8,633 bases of DNA from a virus (lineage: Duplodnaviria; Heunggongvirae; Uroviricota; Caudoviricetes), in the IMG/VR virus record IMGVR_UViG_2541047745_000004, positions 1-8,633 of that record; one strand, 5' to 3'. A program made the translations under genes and the position numbers. Numbering within the stretch: the first letter of the stretch is position 1; every line of letters starts with the position of its first letter. Below the pieces are notes generated by a model that saw nothing but the letters and a program-made list of their open reading frames with translations, searched no databases and was not told where the DNA came from. Shown here piece after piece: positions 1 to 8,633 of the stretch.

Positions 1-462
1 ATGCTGGGTGATTGTTTCCCTCCTGATTTTAAGGCTAATTTTAGTCGTGAAAGAGGTATATCACCCGGTGATGTATTGTATCTTCATTGTGATTTTACGA
101 CCCCACCTAAAGTAAAATATATGGTGGTTGTTTGCTGTGAACCTCTTTTAGTTCTTCTAATAAATTCAGATATAAATGAATTTATTAAGAGAAACAATGA
201 TCTTATGGCTTGTCAGGTCGAAATTAATAGAGAGGACCATGATTTTCTTAAATGGGACTCATTTGTTAATTGCATTGAGGCTCATGCTGCTTTCGATCTT
301 GAAATTATTAAAGAGAAAATAGCCATCCAATATGGCGACGTGCTAAAAGGTCGCATTACAGATCATTGTATGAGACAAGTTCGATGTGCAGTTGAGATAT
401 CTAAAATCATGGTTAAACGGCATAAAAAACTGATACTCGCTGCTCTTCAACATTATGAATAA
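1..462 (+). CDS. hypothetical AT-rich accessory protein (153 aa as seen; start may lie upstream of the window)
   Basis: Open frame from position 1 to TAA at 460-462. Sampled stretches are about 30-38% GC versus about 50% or more in the neighbouring phage genes. Opposite strand to the adjacent early-left operon. Ends inside a perfect 12-bp hairpin. ATG at 1-3 coincides with the window edge, so the 5' end is unverified. No family recognised. Confidence 0.5.
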   Translation: MLGDCFPPDFKANFSRERGISPGDVLYLHCDFTTPPKVKYMVVVCCEPLLVLLINSDINEFIKRNNDLMACQVEINREDHDFLKWDSFVNCIEAHAAFDLEIIKEKIAIQYGDVLKGRITDHCMRQVRCAVEISKIMVKRHKKLILAALQHYE

Positions 463-487
463 ACCCACCTTTGGATGGGTTTATTCA
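456..487. terminator. hairpin between convergent genes, possible shared/bidirectional terminator
   Basis: Perfect inverted repeat TGAATAAACCCA (456-467) / TGGGTTTATTCA (476-487) with an 8-nt loop. It overlaps the TAA of ORF 1..462 and ends 9 nt before the stop (496-498) of the convergent minus-strand gene. Plus-strand 3' flank ATATTCTATTT is moderately U-rich; the minus-strand flank is not. Confidence 0.45.
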
Positions 488-495
488 TATTCTAT

Positions 496-768
496 TTAAA
501 TGAGCCTTTGTTTATGGGTTCTGACCCTTTCCCACTCAGCACGCCCTTCTTCTCGCCTTTTGTCTATGTATTCCGCAAGATCCTGAATATTGATGCAACG
601 TTTTGCTTTTTGTGATGTGCCGATGCGATATGTTGGAACGGGCAACTTACAAGCGTTTGCTTTTGCTTCTGCCGTGGCTGGACTCATGCCAAAGTACTTT
701 TGGCTAACTGCTGAGAGTTCAATGTTAGGGGTATTGAATTCAGCCATCAGTAAAAACAAGGTGTTCAT
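496..768 (-). CDS. small DNA-binding protein, PrtN/excisionase-like (about 90 aa)
   Basis: ORF track gives 496..795. I prefer ATG at 768 (MNTLFLLMAEF...) because GGAG at 774-777 gives a 5-nt spacer; alternative ATGs at 780 and 795. The segment ...KLPVPTYRIGTSQKAKRCINIQDLAEYIDKRREEG... resembles phage PrtN/excisionase-type proteins as I recall them. Family call is tentative. Confidence 0.45.
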   Translation of the reverse strand: MNTLFLLMAEFNTPNIELSAVSQKYFGMSPATAEAKANACKLPVPTYRIGTSQKAKRCINIQDLAEYIDKRREEGRAEWERVRTHKQRLI

Positions 769-804
769 AATTTTCTCCATCAAAACCGGCTGCACCCGGA
801 AAAA

Positions 805-1377
805 TCATAATTCTGTGCTGGTGGCAGGAATTAATTTCTGCCAGATAGCTGAAACATATTTTGCCTGATGACGAGCATCAGCCAGGGCGTTGTGCCGTTC
901 GCCATCGAAAGGCATGTCCATTTTGGGGGCGAATCCGATGGAACGCCCAAGCGTAACGATCGTGCGTACATCGTGATCATTCCAGTACGCCCATGGGCAG
1001 ATTTGTCCTGCTCGTTCATAAGCTCCGCGTAAAATTACGTTGTCGAAGGTGGCCCCGTTACCCCAAACTTTTAAATATTTCGTATTGCCTGCGTGCCGAT
1101 TAATGAAATGGCTCAGTTCAGAGAGTGCATCGCTGATCGACAAAGTATCATCAATACAGATTGCAGCTCGTGCTTCAGGGCTTTGTTTCAACCACCACAG
1201 GATGGTATCGCCGTCAGGTGTGGCCCCTTGCTCCATAGCACTGTCCAGGCTGACAACCGCATAGAATTCTTGTCCGATGTCTCCGGTTTCTGGAGTGAAG
1301 AACACCGCGCCAATGGAAACGATCGGTGCATCCTTATTTTTCCCCATCGTCTCAAGGTCGATCATTAAGTTGTTCAT
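805..1377 (-). CDS. DnaQ-like DEDDh 3'-5' exonuclease
   Basis: ORF track gives 805..1380 (GTG). ATG at 1377-1375 has AGGAGG (1385-1390) 7 nt upstream and overlaps the TGA of the upstream gene (TGATG). Three exonuclease motifs are visible in the translation: Exo I IDLET, Exo II WGNGATFDNV, Exo III HNALADARH. Confidence 0.75.
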   Translation of the reverse strand: MNNLMIDLETMGKNKDAPIVSIGAVFFTPETGDIGQEFYAVVSLDSAMEQGATPDGDTILWWLKQSPEARAAICIDDTLSISDALSELSHFINRHAGNTKYLKVWGNGATFDNVILRGAYERAGQICPWAYWNDHDVRTIVTLGRSIGFAPKMDMPFDGERHNALADARHQAKYVSAIWQKLIPATSTEL

Positions 1378-1913
1378 CACTTCACCTCCTGCGGCGGTTC
1401 CGGTAGCCGCATCCAGTGGGTTACATTGCGGCTCTGTGTTTCGAAGAACTCCTCACCATTGCGGACAACATCAAAAAACTCACTGTCTCGATATTGCGCA
1501 TAAAGAACGAATGCGCCATCACATAAAATAATTACGTGCTGACCATCATCTGGCATTCGCTCACTACAGCTTATCCAGCCAGCCGGAATTACCGGAGAGC
1601 AGGTTGACGTTTCCGAGATTTCCCGAAAGTTTCCGGCCTGAGGCATGGCGGCGCGGTGACACCAGATAATCCAGCCAATCGCCATATCCCATGCCATGTA
1701 TTCGCCATCGCCATTTTTTGCCCTGCGGCGATCTACAGATTCCCCGAAACGCTTCTCCATAAATAATTCATAGGCTGCCCGTTCATCCGATACTGCTTCC
1801 AGTGATGCCAGCGCGATTTCATAAGCCAGGCGCTCAATATTGTCTCGCACGTCCAGGCTGCCGATTCGCTCTCTGATTTCTTTAATCAGTTCTTTGTCGG
1901 TAAAAGTAGTCAT
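1377..1913 (-). CDS. phage protein with C-terminal DUF551-like domain (178 aa)
   Basis: ATG at 1913-1911 preceded by GAGGA at 7-nt spacing, 3 nt after the upstream stop. C-terminal ...GWISCSERMPDDG...THWMRLPEPP matches the DUF551 pattern from memory. Confidence 0.6.
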   Translation of the reverse strand: MTTFTDKELIKEIRERIGSLDVRDNIERLAYEIALASLEAVSDERAAYELFMEKRFGESVDRRRAKNGDGEYMAWDMAIGWIIWCHRAAMPQAGNFREISETSTCSPVIPAGWISCSERMPDDGQHVIILCDGAFVLYAQYRDSEFFDVVRNGEEFFETQSRNVTHWMRLPEPPQEVK

Positions 1914-1916
1914 GTG

Positions 1917-2204
1917 TTAGTCCTCATCCACTTCAACGCCATCTTTCAGCGTGATGCCGTGCCAATCATCAGCCCAACTGGTTAGCCCTGGCGCATCAAT
2001 GCTAGGCATATAGACGCTTGCAGTGTGGTAGCCCTTATCGTTATCAATGCTGGCAACGTGCTCGCCGTTGTATGCGCTCAGCGTGTCCAGGACGCTATAA
2101 AACTTTCCTCCGGCTGCCCTGAAATCCTTTACAGCCTTCACAAGGCGATTCCACGCTTTTTCCTGTTCTGGCGTCAGGTCGATTAATTCCTGCAAAGTTG
2201 CCAT
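1917..2204 (-). CDS. small acidic phage protein (95 aa), function unknown
   Basis: ORF track gives 1917..2246, but the in-frame ATG at 2204-2202 (MATLQELIDL...) has AAGGAGAG at 2210-2217 and sits 1 nt after the TGA (2206-2208) of the upstream gene. About 17 D/E versus 8 K/R, with an acidic C-terminus ...VEVDED. Confidence 0.55.
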   Translation of the reverse strand: MATLQELIDLTPEQEKAWNRLVKAVKDFRAAGGKFYSVLDTLSAYNGEHVASIDNDKGYHTASVYMPSIDAPGLTSWADDWHGITLKDGVEVDED

Positions 2205-2205
2205 A

Positions 2206-2892
2206 TCACTCTCCTTTGATGCGAATGCCAGCGGCGCGGGAATCATTCCATCGCTTTACTTCTTCACGAATTACGTCAATGCATTCTTTCGAATCCATTA
2301 GGTAATCTTCATCAAAAAGCCTTTCCTGTTCGTTTTCTATCGCAACAATGATTGCTTCAACTAACTTTTGTGCCTGAGAACCACTTTCTAACTCTGCAAT
2401 GCGCTTCTCTGCGGCTTCCAGCTTCTCGCGCATATCGTCAACGTACTCGACCAGAGATCCGCCAGCAGGAATTTCGCACTCCTCGACCAGTTGGAAGTAG
2501 ATATCAGCTGCGGCCCGTGTGTTGCTATGCCTAGCGTCGCCCATCTCACCTTCACGAAGAGCATCGCGTTCGGCGGTAAGATTGGCTATTTTGCTGTCTT
2601 TGCCTTCCAGCTCAACGCGCAGCTTCCCAACCGTAAGCGCAATCTCCTCGTTCTCCTGGTCGCGGCGTTTGATGTATTGCTGGTTTCTTTCCCGTTCATC
2701 CAGCAGTGCCAGCACGGTTTCTGGTCCGGTCAGAAATTTGAAGGCGTTGAGCGCATCAATATCCACACCGTAATCTTTAAGTTCCTGTTCACTTAACAAA
2801 TCATCATCAACTGGCAACATTAACAGGCGATCCATTGCCGGAATTGCACGCTCTGCCTCCTCACGCAGTGCCTGATAGTCAATCTTGCTCAC
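2206..2892 (-). CDS. Ea22-like (ead/Ea22 family) coiled-coil protein, 228 aa
   Basis: GTG start at 2892-2890 with AGGAGG (2899-2904) 6 nt upstream, overlapping the TGA of the upstream gene (GTGA). Segments ...LLDERERNQQYIKRRDQENEEIALTVGKLRVELE... and the C-terminus ...AGIRIKGE match lambda Ea22 as I remember it. Confidence 0.7.
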   Translation of the reverse strand: MSKIDYQALREEAERAIPAMDRLLMLPVDDDLLSEQELKDYGVDIDALNAFKFLTGPETVLALLDERERNQQYIKRRDQENEEIALTVGKLRVELEGKDSKIANLTAERDALREGEMGDARHSNTRAAADIYFQLVEECEIPAGGSLVEYVDDMREKLEAAEKRIAELESGSQAQKLVEAIIVAIENEQERLFDEDYLMDSKECIDVIREEVKRWNDSRAAGIRIKGE

Positions 2893-3443
2893 TGGTTGCC
2901 TCCTTTGCGAAGCTGTTCAGCAATACTTACGCATATCTCTGCGCCTCTAATCAGCCCCGGAACGTTCTTGTTTGGCCCAACTTCACCATCAACAAAATCA
3001 ATCATCGCGTTACGAGCCATATTCACCCCCTGCGCCCGCACTTCAGCCAGGCATTTGCGAAACTCGGAAACGTACTGTTCGACGCTCATTCCCCAGCTAA
3101 GTGGACATTCATTGAATGTTTCGCCTTCGTGCTCTTCATCAGGTAGCTCTTTGGTAAAGAACTCACGTTCAATGGCGTGGAGTGTGTCAGCAAAACGACG
3201 TAAGTTACTCAAACCTGTCGTAATGGAGAATTCAGGAGCATCACATCCGACGCCCATCTGCTGATAAACGGCGGTTTTGAAGGCCTTAAGCCCCGCATTC
3301 TCCGCCGCAAGCGCCGAAATCTTAGCCTCCGCTTCAGCAAATTTACGCACCAGATATTCAGCATTTGTTTCGTTAACCTTTAAATCTCGTGGGATGCATT
3401 TCCCGCGAAGAAACCCTTCCATTTCGAAAACATTCATGCGCAT
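2889..3443 (-). CDS. hypothetical early protein (182-184 aa)
   Basis: Start is either ATG 3443 (GGAG about 8 nt upstream) or ATG 3437, which overlaps the TGA of the YfdR-like gene (ATGA). Its stop overlaps the GTG of the Ea22-like gene. No family recognised. Occupies the position of yfdS/yfdT in CPS-53. Confidence 0.55.
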   Translation of the reverse strand: MRMNVFEMEGFLRGKCIPRDLKVNETNAEYLVRKFAEAEAKISALAAENAGLKAFKTAVYQQMGVGCDAPEFSITTGLSNLRRFADTLHAIEREFFTKELPDEEHEGETFNECPLSWGMSVEQYVSEFRKCLAEVRAQGVNMARNAMIDFVDGEVGPNKNVPGLIRGAEICVSIAEQLRKGGNQ

Positions 3444-3970
3444 TTGCGTAACTCCGATAACTCGTTAAAACGTTCCATAAACATCCCGTAGGCATGGCCT
3501 GGCGACAGTGGAATCACTTTGAACATCTCTGTTGCCGGGATACCTTCCAGTACAGGCCAGAAAGAGCCATCATCAAGCCCGAGATCGCGGCGTTCGGTTG
3601 CCAGCATGATGAGATCGGCATATTTCACGGGCGTGCTCATAACCGGGGGTAACCCGTATTTCTCACGGATTACGGCGTCTATTTTTTCTTCCATCCGTTT
3701 ATAGTCAGGAAGAAGGCGTTTCAGTGGCGCGGGGATGTCCTGACAATACGCTTCTGTTGCATCATGCATTAACGCTTCGAAAGCAAACTCCTGCGGTACC
3801 AGTTGGCTGCAAAGCACCGCATGTTGGGCGACGCTGTAGAAGTGTGAAAGATGTCCTGCAAAGCGACAGATATTTGAAAGGGAAACCGCGATATCGTTAA
3901 TCACGATGTCGTCTTTATTTATCCTGTCATAATAAAAATGCTTCCCGGAAAAAGTTTTAATAAATGACAT
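3434..3970 (-). CDS. yfdR: HD-domain phosphohydrolase, YfdR-like (YfbR/YfdR 5'-nucleotidase family)
   Basis: ORF track gives 3434..3997. ATG at 3970-3968 (MSFIKTFSGKHFYYD...) has GGAG 7 nt upstream. HD signature ...FAGHLSHFYSVAQHAV...LMHDATEAY.... N-terminus and length agree with my recollection of E. coli K-12 CPS-53 YfdR. Confidence 0.8.
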   Translation of the reverse strand: MSFIKTFSGKHFYYDRINKDDIVINDIAVSLSNICRFAGHLSHFYSVAQHAVLCSQLVPQEFAFEALMHDATEAYCQDIPAPLKRLLPDYKRMEEKIDAVIREKYGLPPVMSTPVKYADLIMLATERRDLGLDDGSFWPVLEGIPATEMFKVIPLSPGHAYGMFMERFNELSELRKCA

Positions 3971-4063
3971 TTTGTTCTCCACGTATATGCGCTGCACCGC
4001 GCTGAATTCTGGTAAAAGGAAGCCCTCACCATCCGGTGATTATTGAGTTAATTACGTTTCCAT

Positions 4064-4085
4064 AAATGCCCCCGCAGGGGCATTT
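4064..4085 (-). terminator. intra-operon hairpin between yfdQ and yfdR (attenuator- or terminator-like)
   Basis: Perfect 9-bp inverted repeat AAATGCCCC (4064-4072) / GGGGCATTT (4077-4085) with a 4-nt loop, 13 nt downstream of the yfdQ stop. A/T flanks on both sides but no long U-tract. Confidence 0.35.
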
Positions 4086-4097
4086 GCAGTAATGAAA

Positions 4098-4922
4098 TCA
4101 GGCGGTGAAAGTACCAATAAAGGTTTCGACTTTGCTGTCTTTGAATTTCTCAACAAGCAGATCACGAAATTCGTTAGCCATTTCTTCCTGCACCGCTTCC
4201 AGCTGAATAATGCGCAGAACCAGTACAGGACGATCGCCAGTGATAATGCTGAGGCGTAATTTAAATGGACGTTCTTTCAGACCTTCAAACGGAACGCATT
4301 TATATTCAAATGCCACTGGCATAATATCTTTGGTCTTCGCTTCGACAGACTCCATCAGGGAGCGTTTGCCGCTGAAGTCATTATCTTCAAAATCAGCGGT
4401 CTGGTTTGCTTCAATCGTGATTTTACGGACAGCCGCAGCCGCTTTTGTTGCCTGAATAGCGTCACCATTAGCATCAAAGCCCACAAGGTAGTCGGCCCAG
4501 TCTTCAATCCATTCTGCCAGTGACTTCTGGGAGTTACGCTCGCCGTTAACAGACAACAGAGCAGAGAACGGTGCTGTCTTTTTCAGTTTGAGAGTGGCGG
4601 TGTTATCTGCGTGACCTGGTTCATCAATAGTACCCAGGTTAAGCACACTGACGGCTCGCATATTATCGGCATCGATAAAGCAGCGGGTGCCTTCATCTGC
4701 AAGATCTTTAGAATAACGGGTAAAGTCATCGATGCTGGCAGTGGAAAGCGCACCACGGAAACGGAAGCGATTTAAATTAAATTTTTCCAGATCATGAATG
4801 CGGAAATTCTCAGGCAATGCCACAGCATCGGCACCAATCTTACTGATAATTTCATTAACACCCTGAGCAGAAATAAGGGCATGGATTTGATTAATTGCGG
4901 TTGCGTCTAAGTTCTGAGACAT
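4098..4922 (-). CDS. yfdQ: YfdQ-family protein (DUF2303), 274 aa
   Basis: ATG at 4922-4920 with GAGGA 6 nt upstream. Length and position immediately upstream of the yfdR-like gene match CPS-53 YfdQ as I recall. Not verified by search. Confidence 0.7.
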
Positions 4923-4987
4923 AATAAGTCCTCACTATATAAAGATATTCAGTGATGAGATAAATAATCGGTTAATTAAGAACGATA

Positions 4988-5350
4988 TTAATGACCTGCT
5001 GCGCGTAGTTTTCCGTCAGGTTCACCGGCAAGAGTCAGTAATTGTCCCTGGTCTTCCTGCAGAATAGTCAGACGACCACCGCGATTGACATACATCGGCG
5101 TTTCGGTGGTGTCTTCTTCGGAAATTTTCCCGCGGTTAGTCGGTCGAACATATGAGAGTTTGTGTTTGATTTTTACACGGTTCTCATCAAATGGTTCGAT
5201 TTCCAGGTTGAGTGAGACCTTACCTTTGGTTTTCGTGTTCATCACACCGGAAGCGACTTCACTGAGAACTGCGCCGATTTTGGTTTCAAATACGCCGCCG
5301 TCCAGCTCCCCGATAAATGCCTGCACATCAGTACTGCGTTCGCTAGCCAT
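4988..5350 (-). CDS. first early-left gene, hypothetical 120-aa protein (positional equivalent of yfdP)
   Basis: ORF track gives 4988..5668 (226 aa), but the extra N-terminal 106 codons are R/P/G-rich junk-like sequence inside the GC-rich region. ATG at 5350-5348 (MASERSTDVQ...) has GAGGAG 7 nt upstream. Confidence 0.6.
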   Translation of the reverse strand: MASERSTDVQAFIGELDGGVFETKIGAVLSEVASGVMNTKTKGKVSLNLEIEPFDENRVKIKHKLSYVRPTNRGKISEEDTTETPMYVNRGGRLTILQEDQGQLLTLAGEPDGKLRAAGH

Positions 5351-5818
5351 TTTGCTGCTCCTCATCATATCGACCCTGCAAGGTCGGTTGGTTTCTCCAC
5401 AAAACAGAGAAGAACACCTGCGGTGGCAGCCGCCCGGATGGATTGGGTTATGAGCCCGTCGTCCGGTGATGCTCTTCTCTGTTTTGTAAAAAGAGCGGTA
5501 CCAGCCGGAAGCAAGGGTACAAGCTGGTACCGCCAGGACTACACACAGCATAAAGTTGTGGTGCCGGGTGCCTCCCGGTGCCTGGCGAAGGTTGCACACC
5601 AGGCGGGTGGGTATCCACAGAAGGTCGACTGTCAGCCTCAACCTTAACCCGCGTGCGCTGAGCCGCATTCACCACAACGCTAAGGATTCTCTCTGGTTGA
5701 AAATACTTAGCTGTTATGTGCCTGCTTTTAGCCACATCAGGCGAGGTGGGCCTGGTTATTCCCCAACAACAAGGATTCGGCTAATCTGGATGACTCTGTT
5801 CTTAGAGGGGATAATTAA
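5351..5818. other. GC-rich, ORF-free, highly self-complementary intergenic element (candidate structured RNA or regulatory leader)
   Basis: About 58-60% GC in sampled stretches. Only low-complexity junk-like ORFs. Multiple inverted repeats: 5399-5415 vs 5471-5487, 5495-5505 vs 5523-5533, hairpin 5559-5581, 5588-5594 vs 5639-5645. Function not established. Confidence 0.4.
5399..5487. repeat. long inverted repeat (15 contiguous bp of 17-nt arms) with 55-nt spacer
   Basis: ACAAAACAGAGAAGAAC (5399-5415) versus GCTCTTCTCTGTTTTGT (5471-5487). The reverse complement of the right arm is ACAAAACAGAGAAGAGC, giving one mismatch. Confidence 0.8.
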
Positions 5819-6331
5819 ATGGGAGCGATTTATGTTAAACGTTTGATTCTGTCGGTAGCACTGATAATACCGATAGCATCCAATGCTTCTGATGCTTTGA
5901 ACCAGCCGAGCAGTAGTCTAAATGATGGTGTTGAGACTTTTTTTATTTCCTGCTTTGATATGCCTCAGGAAACAACTACTGATATGGACGCTTGTCAGAG
6001 AGTTCAGTTAGCTCAGGTTAGTTGGGTTAAGAATAAGTATTCGGTGGCCGCCCTGAATCGTTTGAAACAAGACAACAAGGATGATCCACAGCGTCTGCAG
6101 GAATTAACTGCTTCTTTTAACGCGGAAAGTGAAGCTTGGACAGAATTAATTGAGAAAGCGTCAAAGTCCGTCCAGGTTGATTATGCAGGAGGAACTATAG
6201 CTGGCACTGCAGTTGCATCACGTCAAATTGGTCTTCTGGAATTACAATCCCACGATATCTGGGAGCACTGGCTACGATTCGAGGACTCAACTCCTCCTCT
6301 TTTGCCAGAACCAAAGTTCAAATCTGAGTAA
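5819..6331 (+). CDS. secreted/periplasmic moron protein (170 aa) with Sec-type signal peptide
   Basis: ATG at 5819 with GAGGGG 8 nt upstream. N-terminus MGAIYVKRLILSVALIIPIASNA/SDA has a basic n-region, a hydrophobic core and an S-N-A cleavage motif, with no lipobox Cys. A sampled stretch is about 43% GC. Own intrinsic terminator downstream; convergent with cI. Possible LprI/DUF1311-like periplasmic protein, but that is a weak unverified recollection. Confidence 0.65.
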   Translation: MGAIYVKRLILSVALIIPIASNASDALNQPSSSLNDGVETFFISCFDMPQETTTDMDACQRVQLAQVSWVKNKYSVAALNRLKQDNKDDPQRLQELTASFNAESEAWTELIEKASKSVQVDYAGGTIAGTAVASRQIGLLELQSHDIWEHWLRFEDSTPPLLPEPKFKSE

Positions 6332-6340
6332 TAAGTCATC

Positions 6341-6357
6341 CAGATTGTTAAAGAGCG
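6341..6357 (-). promoter_or_regulatory. boxA-like antitermination motif on the leftward transcript
   Basis: Minus strand reads CGCTCTTTAACAATCTG. The core GCTCTTTAACAAT (13 nt) is identical to the E. coli rrn boxA core (UGCUCUUUAACAAU...) and fits the lambdoid boxA consensus CGCUCUU(U)A. It directly follows a hairpin (antisense of the moron terminator) and lies about 180 nt downstream of the operator repeats. Confidence 0.45.
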
Positions 6358-6358
6358 A

Positions 6359-6381
6359 AGCGTCCTATAGGGCGCTTTTTT
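6359..6381 (+). terminator. rho-independent terminator of the 5819..6331 gene
   Basis: Stem AGCGTCC (6359-6365) / GGGCGCT (6370-6376) with one G-U pair, loop TATA, followed by a T run at 6376-6381, about 28 nt after the stop codon. Confidence 0.65.
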
Positions 6382-6555
6382 GTTGCTAACGAATCATCCT
6401 GGACTTCATATGCCCCAGGCGGCTACTTCGTGGTCGTCCTGACTGTTCGTTTTTGACATTTACTGACCGCTTACGACACATGCACCATGCACCGTGTTGC
6501 AACCAGATTTTGTTGTAATCCTGTAGTTGGTCTGGAACAAAAGATAAAATTAAAA

Positions 6556-6592
6556 TGCGAGATGTGCAAGCAATATTTTGCGAGATGTGCAA
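6556..6592. promoter_or_regulatory. oL-like operator pair (tandem direct repeats) with candidate pL
   Basis: Perfect 14-bp direct repeat TGCGAGATGTGCAA at 6556-6569 and 6579-6592, sharing 11 of 14 positions with TGCGTGATAAGCAA at 7361-7374 in the cI/cro intergenic region. Candidate leftward promoter on the minus strand: -35 TTGCAC (6564-6569), 17-bp spacer, -10 TATCTT (6541-6546). Promoter assignment is tentative. Confidence 0.5.
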
Positions 6593-6605
6593 AATGATGG
6601 GTGAT

Positions 6606-6626
6606 AAAAAGCCACCTTTCGGTGGC
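6606..6626 (-). terminator. rho-independent terminator downstream of cI
   Basis: Minus-strand RNA forms GCCACC-GAAA-GGUGGC (6-bp GC stem, GNRA-type loop; plus 6611-6626) followed by UUUUU (plus A run 6606-6610), 20 nt after the cI stop. Confidence 0.6.
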
Positions 6627-6646
6627 CGATGGATGGGATATTGAAG

Positions 6647-7339
6647 TTAATTATGTCTCTTAAGGGTTTGCGACTGACTGATTAAGACCTTTCCAAAGAC
6701 CATGAATCGGTGTTCGTTTTCGCTAGTAATTCCCCATTCACGGTAAATCTGGTTATCAGAAATCACCAGCAGTTTGTCAGGAATCATTTGAAGTCTTTTA
6801 ACGTATATTTTGTCATCAAAACCAAAGACATATATACCATCACCATCAAACTGATTGATGCTGACATCAACGAAGATGAGATCTCCTGGCTCAATGGTTG
6901 GACACATACTGTCCCCACGAACGTTGATAACTTTGATGTGATTGGCTGGTCGTCCGCCGAACATTGATACAGCATTATCAGTTCTGTATTCGATGGCATG
7001 AATCACATCAATGACATCACCGCCCTGGATAAGGCCATTTCCCGCACTGGCACTGATATCCAGCATTTCAATACGGAACACATCCTTCACCTGCGCAACA
7101 TCCTCATCATTACTGTTTTTATATACAGTATTACTTTTGAGGGCAGAGGTAAAGAGATCAGCAATATCAACACCTAAGCTCTTGGCAATATTACTCAGTG
7201 TTTGTTCGGTAAATTGTTTCTGCTTACCCGTTTCTAAGCGCGAGATGTTCGCCGCATCTACTCCTATTGCTTCAGCGAGATCGGCGATTTTCATGTTCTT
7301 CGCTTGGCGAAGTTGTCTGACTCGGTTTCCTATGTTCAT
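6647..7339 (-). CDS. cI: CI-type prophage repressor (N-terminal XRE HTH, C-terminal S24 LexA-like autopeptidase)
   Basis: 230 aa. HTH ...IADLAEAIGVDAANISRLETGK.... Ala-Gly at SASAGNG as candidate autocleavage site. Catalytic Ser in RGDSMCP and Lys in YVKRLQ. Divergent from the cro-like gene. Confidence 0.85.
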   Translation of the reverse strand: MNIGNRVRQLRQAKNMKIADLAEAIGVDAANISRLETGKQKQFTEQTLSNIAKSLGVDIADLFTSALKSNTVYKNSNDEDVAQVKDVFRIEMLDISASAGNGLIQGGDVIDVIHAIEYRTDNAVSMFGGRPANHIKVINVRGDSMCPTIEPGDLIFVDVSINQFDGDGIYVFGFDDKIYVKRLQMIPDKLLVISDNQIYREWGITSENEHRFMVFGKVLISQSQTLKRHN

Positions 7340-7436
7340 GCGTTTATTACATTTCTTTATTGCGTGATAAGCAAATCAACTTGCGCAAAACACTTGCGTG
7401 AAATAACATGCATAACGCGCAATATTTGGAGGGTAT
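7340..7436. promoter_or_regulatory. divergent switch region (oR operators, pRM and pR)
   Basis: TTGCG half-sites at 7360, 7381 and 7394, with GCAA/CGCAA at 7371-7374, 7384-7388 and 7418-7422. Candidate pRM on the minus strand: -35 TTGCTT (7369-7374), 17-bp spacer, -10 TGTAAT (7346-7351), placing the start about at the cI ATG with no Shine-Dalgarno sequence (leaderless, as for lambda cI). Candidate pR: -35 TTGCGC (7381-7386), -10 TAACAT (7404-7409), weaker. Cro RBS GGAGGG at 7428-7433. Confidence 0.55.
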
Positions 7437-7697
7437 ATGCAATCACCATTACGAAATGTGCGTAAGGCGCATGGTTTCACTTTGCAGCATGTTGCTGCGG
7501 GTGTTCAAGTCAATCCAGCGACGTTGAGTCGTATTGAGAGGCTGGAACAGATTCCATCTATCGAGCTTGCAGAACGTTTAGCCAATTTTTTTAAGGGTGA
7601 AATCAGCGAAATGCAGATTCTTTATCCGGCACGTTTTCAATCTAGCCAAAACCAGAATGGGTTTAAACCACAGGAACAGGAGGTGAACCGTGGGTAA
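7437..7697 (+). CDS. Cro-like HTH regulator (86 aa)
   Basis: ATG 7437 after GGAGGG. HTH ...FTLQHVAAGVQVNPATLSRIER.... Divergent from cI. Overlaps the next gene by 8 nt. Confidence 0.65.
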   Translation: MQSPLRNVRKAHGFTLQHVAAGVQVNPATLSRIERLEQIPSIELAERLANFFKGEISEMQILYPARFQSSQNQNGFKPQEQEVNRG

Positions 7698-8241
7698 GCA
7701 TCACTGGAAAGTAGACAAACAGCCTGAGTGGTTCGTGAAAGCTGTCAGAAAAACTATCGCAGCGTTGCCTGGGGGTTACGCTGAAGCTGCTGACTGGCTG
7801 GATGTAACAGAGAACGCATTATTTAACCGCCTTCGTGCCGATGGCGATCAGATTTTCCCGCTGGGATGGGCAATGGTTTTACAGCGTGCTGCTGGCACTC
7901 ACTACATTGCGGATGCTGTCGCACAGTCTGCTGGTGGGGTGTTTGTATCGCTTCCTGAAATTGAGGAAGTAGAGAACGCAGATATAAACCAGCGCCTGCT
8001 GGAAGTCATCGAACAGATCGGGAGTTACTCAAAGCAGATTCGTTCGGCAATCGAAGATGGGGTAGTGGAGCCACACGAGCAGACAGCAATTAATGATGAG
8101 TTGTATCTGTCAATTTCGAAGCTCCAGGAGCATGCAGCACTGGTCTACAAAATCTTTTGCGCTCCAGAAAAGAGTGACGCCCGCGAGTGTGCAGCTCCGG
8201 GCGTCGTGGCGTTTTGTGTCTGTGGAGAAACTAACGCATGA
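7690..8241 (+). CDS. CII-like phage regulatory protein (CP76-family-like, tentative), 183 aa
   Basis: GTG 7690 with AGGAGG (7678-7683) 6 nt upstream. Position immediately after cro. Overall resemblance to phage regulatory CII (CP76) family proteins from memory; family assignment unverified. Confidence 0.55.
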   Translation: MGKHHWKVDKQPEWFVKAVRKTIAALPGGYAEAADWLDVTENALFNRLRADGDQIFPLGWAMVLQRAAGTHYIADAVAQSAGGVFVSLPEIEEVENADINQRLLEVIEQIGSYSKQIRSAIEDGVVEPHEQTAINDELYLSISKLQEHAALVYKIFCAPEKSDARECAAPGVVAFCVCGETNA

Positions 8242-8633
8242 ACAGTTTAACGGCAAATAACCGTTTGTCGCAACAGCTGGTGGTCAGCGTCGCTGAACAC
8301 CTGTTGTTACGGCATGAATGCAGATTACCAAATCACCTGGCTGTAAGTAACCACAGAGAACTTTACCTGACTGTGGGGGGCGAGTTGTGCAGGAACTTAA
8401 CCGCTGGTTTCGTGACGGAAGAGGACTTTATGTTCATGTTATTCGTTGGGAGCCAGAAACACAGCGCGTTATCTATCTTCGCAAAGACTACCCGCATGAG
8501 TGCTTTAGTCCTTTGTGGAAATTCAGGCGTGATTTTGTTGAGTGTGAAGGACCACCAGCACATTGATTCTGCCATTCCGGGACGTTACACTGTTCAGGCA
8601 CCTTATAAAGCGGGTGCCGGGATTGGCGTCCTG
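8238..8633 (+). CDS. hypothetical protein, open at window end; possibly frameshifted at a G6 tract (see findings)
   Basis: ATG 8238 overlaps the TGA of the CII-like gene (ATGA). The frame has no stop to position 8633, which is why the ORF track omits it. The first 47 codons look protein-like and the remainder looks less convincing. Product unknown. Confidence 0.45.
   Translation, partial: MNSLTANNRLSQQLVVSVAEHLLLRHECRLPNHLAVSNHRELYLTVGGELCRNLTAGFVTEEDFMFMLFVGSQKHSALSIFAKTTRMSALVLCGNSGVILLSVKDHQHIDSAIPGRYTVQAPYKAGAGIGVL

Follow-up and report, generated by a model that had tools for sequence, protein, structure and literature searches.

The window analysed here is the whole stretch of 8,633 nucleotides (nt) of the IMG/VR virus record IMGVR_UViG_2541047745_000004 (Caudoviricetes), positions 1 to 8,633. 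Its first 462 bases hold a complete gene, here called panT, and a partner gene, panA, lies immediately upstream of the window. The two genes probably form a PanA-PanT (PanAT) type II toxin-antitoxin module in which PanT is the predicted toxin. The open reading frame (ORF) of panT starts with ATG at base 1 and runs on the plus strand through 153 codons to TAA at 460–462. A stop-free run of this length is reached in none of 2000 shuffles of window 1–520 (mean 61 codons, maximum 144) and has a chance of about 1e-5 at this composition, so the ORF is not a chance one. The initial annotation, made from the letters of the window, described an AT-rich plus-strand frame with a Cys-rich product, and both features hold. 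The GC content of panT is 35.1% (24% at third codon positions, GC3) versus 47.4% in the remaining window, and the protein has eight cysteines in 153 residues, at positions 5, 30, 45, 46, 71, 91, 123 and 129. The start, which the initial annotation suspected to lie outside the window, is placed inside it by an in-frame TAG 45 nt upstream of the ATG and by the start M-(xx)-LGD that homologues share. What lies outside is the partner gene. Window bases 1–799 are 100% identical to several complete Escherichia coli chromosomes. In strain 730V1 the PanT protein is WP_001547986.1, annotated as 'hypothetical protein'. An RNA gene at 1–462 was also considered and rejected, as a scan of the window against Rfam matched no family.

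The partner gene panA is on the same strand. In strain 730V1 its product is WP_001547985.1, annotated as 'Panacea domain-containing protein', and the gene ends 5 nt before panT. PanA matches the Pfam family SocA_Panacea (PF13274) with an E value of 6.8e-20 and 72.5 bits, versus a cut-off of 25.7, and is a standalone Panacea-domain protein. PanAT systems are recognized by a Panacea gene (PF13274/DUF4065) no more than 100 nt from a toxin gene in the same operon, and the 5-nt gap falls well within that distance. The panA start given by the Prokaryotic Genome Annotation Pipeline (PGAP) is L001 7414. Homologues in Rahnella and Serratia begin at the equivalent of L001 7468 (MLNVRFD...), with an AAGGG motif 7–8 nt upstream of that position, and judged from these sequences the PGAP start is probably 18 codons too early. 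A sigma-70-like promoter site precedes panA (Table 1); such sites are no commoner in the scanned region than in shuffled sequence.

Downstream, panT runs into a hairpin typical of intrinsic terminators, and the stop codon of the gene lies within the 5' arm. Folding of the hairpin gives a free energy of −19.5 kcal/mol and a z-score of −6.5, a stability that no shuffle out of 200 equals. The initial annotation had seen the hairpin and given it a 12-bp stem; its presence is supported and its stem is 14 bp long. The hairpin belongs to the swappable cassette described below, because homology to other prophages restarts only at window 507 or 518. A gap of 33 nt, which holds the hairpin, separates panT from the convergent minus-strand gene of the PrtN family, which PGAP annotates shorter (496–768), and behind that gene stand a 3'–5' exonuclease gene and other early-left genes. 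Both the PrtN/excisionase-like neighbour and the orientation of panT against the early-left operon had been correctly read in the initial annotation.

Table 1. Features of the panA-panT locus and of the corresponding slot in E. coli O157:H7 TR01. Plain numbers are window positions; L001 is the locus extended beyond the window (L001 8506 = window 506) and L008 is the TR01 locus.
Feature	Position	Strand	Description
Promoter-like site	L001 7372–7401		Upstream of panA; sigma-70-like (TTGACC, 18 nt, TAAGAT)
panA	L001 7414/7468–7995	+	Upstream of window; match to PF13274
panT, complete coding sequence	1–462	+	153 amino acids; probable toxin with MazF/PemK-like fold; PanT cluster T5
Intrinsic-terminator hairpin	454–489	+	14-bp stem, 8-nt loop; T-rich tail 490–499; closes the panA-panT transcript
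In-window portion of variable cassette (~1.17 kb)	1–506		Break-points relative to the D97-1, KP63 and O157 TR01 prophages
PrtN-family (excisionase-like) gene	496–795	−	PF11112, E 3.9e-23; conserved right border of the slot, outside the module
O157:H7 TR01 slot occupants	L008 3019–3552 and 3749–3922		177-residue WP_000956557.1 and 57-residue WP_000654815.1, both hypothetical

A two-gene unit in a swappable prophage slot

PanT belongs to a large protein family. A word-indexed search gives 41 homologue clusters of 148–157 residues and 42–99% identity, from Enterobacterales and Idiomarina. At E ≤ 1e-3 an exhaustive profile search retrieves 1245 sequences, each representing a cluster at 50% identity (622 at E ≤ 1e-10), and the length is 135–170 residues in 132 of the 150 profile matches listed. 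The coding frame, whose conservation in relatives the initial annotation had left to be checked, is kept at 26–42% identity across phyla. Among the PHROGs only phrog_29007, of unknown function, is matched (E 0.009).

The link to panA holds in every context examined. Among one-genome-per-species contigs of other genera and phyla, which include Photorhabdus, Proteus, Serratia, Pseudomonas, Marinimicrobium, Acidobacteriota, Thiomargarita, WS1 and candidate phyla, all 23 of the 23 loci recovered have a PanA-like ORF immediately before the panT homologue. A Panacea gene is also found directly upstream of the panT homologue in Idiomarina. A P2-like prophage of Rahnella aceris carries the pair in the interval from the gpA replication gene to the portal gene, which corresponds to the old/tin defence hotspot of P2. 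There the pair is followed by a gene for a 305-residue AbiJ_NTD4-domain protein (L003 4771–5688), and two candidate defence modules adjoin each other. In the isolated Serratia phage vB_SspS_OS31 the pair is located between the antiterminator Q gene and methylase/lysis genes. Taken together, the flanks vary from locus to locus and include a dusA prophage end, a P2-like hotspot, a phage late region, cueO/hpt, a cI-like repressor gene, an endolysin-like gene, umuC and a group II intron. Since the flanking genes differ between loci, the conserved unit is the panA-panT pair itself. Conservation is thereby confined to the two or three genes at most that are expected of a PanAT neighbourhood, with break-points tight around the pair. 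We regard it as nearly certain that panT is part of a PanA-linked two-gene module.

Upstream neighbours had been proposed as a check, and they place the module precisely. A spacer of about 140 nt separates panA from a dusA remnant (105 nt from the 5' end of that gene), beyond which lie the chromosomal genes yjbM, zur and lexA, an order found in all six genomes inspected. In each of the six, a prophage integrated at dusA carries the cassette at its integrase-distal att end; dusA is known to serve prophages and islands as a site of integration (Farrugia et al. 2015, PMC4482086). The ~38-kb prophage of strain AVS0790 has its tyrosine integrase about 37 kb away, at the opposite end, adjoining intact dusA. 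The locus therefore is not the int-proximal edge that the initial annotation took it for. As panT is complete and the integrase gene stands at the opposite prophage end, the possibility that panT is a 3'-terminal piece of an integrase gene or of some other core phage gene was rejected. Strain 730V1 (NZ_CP061764.1 4686000–4731500) differs at that far end, where IS5 and IS26 have rearranged the prophage and a CP4-like island with cbtA and yeeU borders on it. Because no intact integrase or dusA adjoins this rearranged end, the prophage in 730V1 is probably defective.

Within E. coli the module is rare and moves as a block. The panT gene occurs in 46 of 5426 complete genomes and the adjacent PrtN gene in 741. 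The 1222-nt panA-panT segment is present in its entirety in each of the 46 ORF-bearing genomes; in the remaining 336 genomes that match, similarity is limited to the first 104 nt. At megablast sensitivity neither panA nor panT is found alone in any of the 5426 genomes. Pairwise comparison with sibling prophages puts the break-points at L001 7334/7335 and 8506/8507 (window 506/507), with the right break at window 517/518 when compared with O157 TR01. The cassette, L001 7335–8506, begins 666 nt upstream of window base 1 and is therefore about 1.17 kb long; it is AT-rich and holds panA, panT and the terminator hairpin.

The comparison of presence and absence among sibling prophages, suggested in the initial annotation, shows that the occupant of the slot varies between identical flanks. 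In strains D97-1 and KP63 the slot holds the Panacea gene for WP_000287252.1 and a gene for a 182-residue membrane protein (L009 2912–3956 and L010 2912–3956). The PanA of this cassette has only 33% identity over 40 residues to the PanA described here, and the two downstream proteins show no similarity to each other. The commonest occupant is an unrelated two-gene cassette found in O157:H7 and many other strains, in full in 358 genomes and at least in part in 562. Neither of its proteins, WP_000956557.1 and WP_000654815.1, has a Pfam match, and by position they could be another toxin-antitoxin or defence pair. The initial annotation had suggested horizontally acquired cargo of the toxin, defence or exclusion type. 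The presence of panT in 46 genomes against 741 for the PrtN gene, the replaceable slot with sharp break-points and the Panacea partner all support that suggestion, as does the predicted fold of the protein.

Predicted fold of PanT and its published relatives

The AlphaFold2 model of PanT, built from a 28-sequence alignment, has a mean predicted local distance difference test score (pLDDT) of 89.7 and a predicted template modelling score (pTM) of 0.83. N-terminal helices are followed by strands 24–30, 37–46 and 49–55, short helices, strands 72–75 and 87–90, and helices from residue 100 to the end. Foldseek returns MazF-mt3 and MazF-mt1 as top matches in the PDB, and 'PemK-like protein' and 'Endoribonuclease' as top matches in a library of viral structures. 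The model has the SH3-like barrel of MazF and Kid, extended by a helix at the N-terminus and by a helical stretch of about 45 residues at the C-terminus. PanT very probably has a MazF/Kid/PemK-type fold, as judged from the model. Remote homology search and structure prediction had been recommended in the initial annotation; the fold search gave the MazF type and the sequence-profile searches did not.

Across about 130 divergent members of the family (26–54% identity to PanT), Lys39 and Ser87 are invariant. Gly23, Phe32, Asn55, Ser56, Phe82, Leu83 and Cys91 are conserved in at least 90% of these members, and Lys37, Gln72, Asp86 and Cys30 in 84–89%. A zinc-binding Cys/His protein was considered and rejected, as only Cys30 and Cys91 are kept in the wider family and His80 and His95 are conserved among close relatives only. 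In MazF the catalytic residues are an arginine (Arg25 in Bacillus subtilis, Arg29 in E. coli) and a threonine (Thr48 and Thr52, respectively). The equivalences proposed here follow the order of secondary-structure elements and a weak partial alignment, not a superposition. On that basis Gly23-Asp24-Val25 at the start of strand 1 would correspond to Gly6-Asp7-Val8 of B. subtilis MazF. Lys39, at the start of strand 2, would take the place of catalytic Arg25, and Asn55-Ser56, at the end of strand 3, would be at the position of catalytic Thr48. Gln72 in strand 4 may match His59, and Asp86-Ser87 before strand 5 may be the counterpart of the conserved Asp72-Ser73 motif; these last two pairs also occur in the weak hhalign alignment. 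This pattern of residues would be consistent with a MazF-type endoribonuclease with Lys for Arg. Cys91 and the C-terminal helices have no counterpart in MazF.

PanAT systems have been surveyed by Kurata et al. (2022, PNAS 119:e2102212119, PMC8832971), and statements on them below refer to that article, its Dataset S1 and its Table 1. Photorhabdus heterorhabditis WP_054475897.1, in the cluster of our homologue P0033, is 52% identical to PanT over the full length (E 4e-64). Dataset S1 lists it as a predicted toxin of cluster T5, paired with PanA WP_054475899.1 in the order antitoxin first with a 3-nt gap, and marks it 'notest'. Because of this similarity to a listed member, PanT is assigned by sequence to cluster T5. 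It belongs to a family already predicted in print, although the initial annotation had recognized none. The accessions WP_001547985 and WP_001547986 do not appear in the portions of the supplementary data of the Panacea and NetFlax papers that we used. T5 spans Proteobacteria, Bacteroidetes, Cyanobacteria, Fibrobacteres and Chlorobi, and its representative reaches 99.5% to EndoA/MazF by HHpred (PMC8832971). Like PanT, the T5 members in the dataset have the antitoxin gene first, a gap of a few nt, a standalone ('noNTD') PanA, a length of about 150 residues and a MazF-like prediction.

Several published systems are close in one respect and differ in another. PanA-PanT(Esc. col.) of Shiga toxin-producing E. 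coli (STEC) O31 (WP_000287252.1/WP_000019185.1; cluster T3) has been experimentally validated. It shares with the pair described here the antitoxin domain, the gene order and the slot itself, bounded by the dusA remnant on one side and the PrtN gene on the other, but its toxin is the unrelated 182-residue membrane protein, and the T3 cassette is present in 79 genomes versus 46. Dataset S1 labels this pair 'NotPhage'; the identical PanA, WP_000287252.1, is inside the att end of the dusA prophage in D97-1 and KP63. PanT(Pse. mor.) of cluster T6 and PanT(Bif. rum.) of cluster T25, for which an EndoA/PemK/MazF fold is likewise predicted, are validated as genuine PanA-neutralized toxins and fall in sequence clusters other than T5 (PMC8832971). 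MazF, Kid and PemK themselves (PF02452) differ from PanT in having the catalytic Arg where PanT would have Lys, in a longer loop between strands 1 and 2, and in lacking the N-terminal helix and the C-terminal helices of about 45 residues. Their antitoxins are MazE, PemI and Kis, in contrast to PanA here.

Toxin and antitoxin, or another kind of pair

We propose that window 1–462 encodes the toxin of a bicistronic PanA-PanT module. Free PanT would arrest growth, most likely by cleaving RNA at specific sequences and so blocking translation, with Lys39 in place of the MazF catalytic arginine. PanA would bind PanT directly and thereby neutralize it, the mode reported for Panacea antitoxins of the standalone type (NetFlax study, PMC10440598), and the short gap between the genes may permit translational coupling. 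From the combined analysis, panT is probably a functional, PanA-neutralized predicted toxin with a MazF-type fold, and the expectation that PanT is toxic and that PanA counteracts it is a likely one. Cleavage of RNA, which is read from the model, is only slightly favored.

The pattern of gene decay is informative here. In E. coli O166:H15 strains an additional A in the A-run at window 316 shifts the frame and shortens the product to 112 residues, while panA stays intact; this short form is recorded on 82 contigs. Split or truncated panT genes next to full-length panA occur in 5 of the 23 species genomes, all of them Photorhabdus, in which the pair occupies a fixed chromosomal site. Repeated loss of the downstream gene alone is expected for a toxin with a harmless antitoxin, and disruption of panT beside intact panA is better explained by selection against a harmful gene than by neutral change.

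Several observations weigh against the toxin proposal. The Pfam PemK model PF02452 matches neither PanT (E ≤ 1) nor 123 family members (E ≤ 0.01). Profile searches of PDB sequences with two family alignments give chance matches only (an AUGMIN subunit and a leucine-rich repeat protein). The alignment by hhalign of the 123-sequence family profile with B. subtilis MazF (identical to 4me7_A) has a probability of 5.9%, and local hhalign against B. subtilis and E. coli MazF stays below 1%. A database search seeded with B. subtilis MazF gave only matches of 94–100% identity and was of no use for a better MazF profile. As no sequence-level link was reproduced, the connection to MazF is drawn here from the fold and from the HHpred score given in Dataset S1. 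To this are added the manner in which the residue equivalences were drawn and the fact that the canonical catalytic arginine is not conserved as Arg in the family. PanT matches no Pfam, NCBIfam or PADLOC model, and PADLOC-DB v2 has none for PanT or PanA at E ≤ 1. There is no clear Shine-Dalgarno sequence at panT. In the published data, eight of the predicted PanTs showed no toxicity when tried in E. coli (PMC8832971). The sole T5 protein tested, Chryseobacterium bovis WP_076782181.1, was toxic in E. coli but not rescued, because its PanA is itself toxic, and rescue has been demonstrated for no T5 pair.

The last three of these observations are the ones that would favor a pair that does not work as a toxin-antitoxin system in E. 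coli, with PanT a harmless or attenuated accessory protein that travels with the Panacea gene. The toxicity of the only T5 member tested argues against such a pair, as do the pairing of the genes in every one of the 23 loci across phyla, the conservation at the protein level over the 1245 cluster representatives and the repeated disruption of panT next to intact panA. We consider a harmless pair unlikely. To a similarly small degree, PanT may have the MazF/CcdB fold and not be a nuclease; it would then poison a protein target, as CcdB does with gyrase, or bind another partner, and would still be neutralized by PanA. In the structure comparison CcdB scores lower than MazF, and its antitoxin is a different one.

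A mechanism like that of the type VI system SocAB is very improbable. Here the Panacea protein would be a ClpXP adaptor and would lower the toxin by proteolysis, not by stoichiometric binding. It is suggested by the name and content of PF13274, as Panacea is the SocA domain, and by a weak match to the NCBIfam SocA_antitoxin model. That match, to the SocA equivalog model NF047745, is 17.1 bits versus a cut-off of 190. The toxin is also unrelated to SocB, which is in cluster T10 and not T5 (PMC8832971), and published PanA-PanT pairs form complexes, with standalone Panacea antitoxins acting directly. A type III toxin of the ToxN/AbiQ/CptN kind, under a repetitive RNA antitoxin and with an incidental Panacea gene, is excluded: these toxins score well below MazF and have other antitoxins, no tandem repeats are found in L001 7100–8600 (minimum score 30), the window is without an Rfam family, and every locus has a conserved protein-coding gene at the upstream position.

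If PanT is a PanA-neutralized toxin, the prophage may profit from the module in two ways, both more speculative: by abortive infection or exclusion of other phages, or by post-segregational stabilization of the prophage itself. A role in defence against phages is suggested only by location, namely the prophage end slot, the P2 hotspot beside an Abi-like gene and the moron site in a phage late region, and we hold it as tentative. Going further, the T5 PanTs could form a branch of the MazF fold with a mechanism of its own, in which Lys39, Ser87, Cys91, Asn55 and the extra helical domain might serve a new RNA or non-RNA target. The cassette could be a prophage-encoded abortive-infection system with PanA as phage sensor, and the slot would then be a natural swap site for unrelated PanAT and other defence cassettes. 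This extended proposal is rather unlikely as a whole.

Two other ORFs of the window deserve mention. The plus-strand ORF at 5819–6331, between the early-left genes and the cI-like repressor gene, encodes 170 residues with a signal-peptide-like N-terminus and has a weak, sub-threshold match to LprI, a lysozyme inhibitor (PF07007, E 0.006, 17.3 bits versus a cut-off of 22). This ORF, opposed in orientation to its neighbours, may represent a second piece of cargo. The minus-strand ORF at 4988–5668 encodes 226 residues, with an Arg/Cys-rich N-terminal half in a GC-rich patch at about 5250–5700 (54–57% GC), and has no Pfam or Rfam match. The real gene is probably only the C-terminal part of about 120 residues, which by eye resembles YfdP.

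What is new, as far as the sequences tell, is probably a further member of the published PanAT toxin-antitoxin cargo, found in an E. coli prophage. The 'hyperpromiscuity' of Panacea is seen in a single slot, whose identical flanks enclose, in one prophage or another, the membrane toxin cassette of cluster T3, the MazF-like one of T5 or an unrelated third one. This alternation illustrates the published partner swapping of Panacea and does not extend it, and it is no new kind of biology. Cluster T5 is very large, with its 1245 clusters at 50% identity, and is without a Pfam model. A native E. coli member avoids the problems of a heterologous host that blocked validation of the one T5 pair tried in the published survey. 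With the present assignment, a 'hypothetical protein' becomes a testable candidate toxin gene, located in a prophage of food-animal and clinical E. coli.

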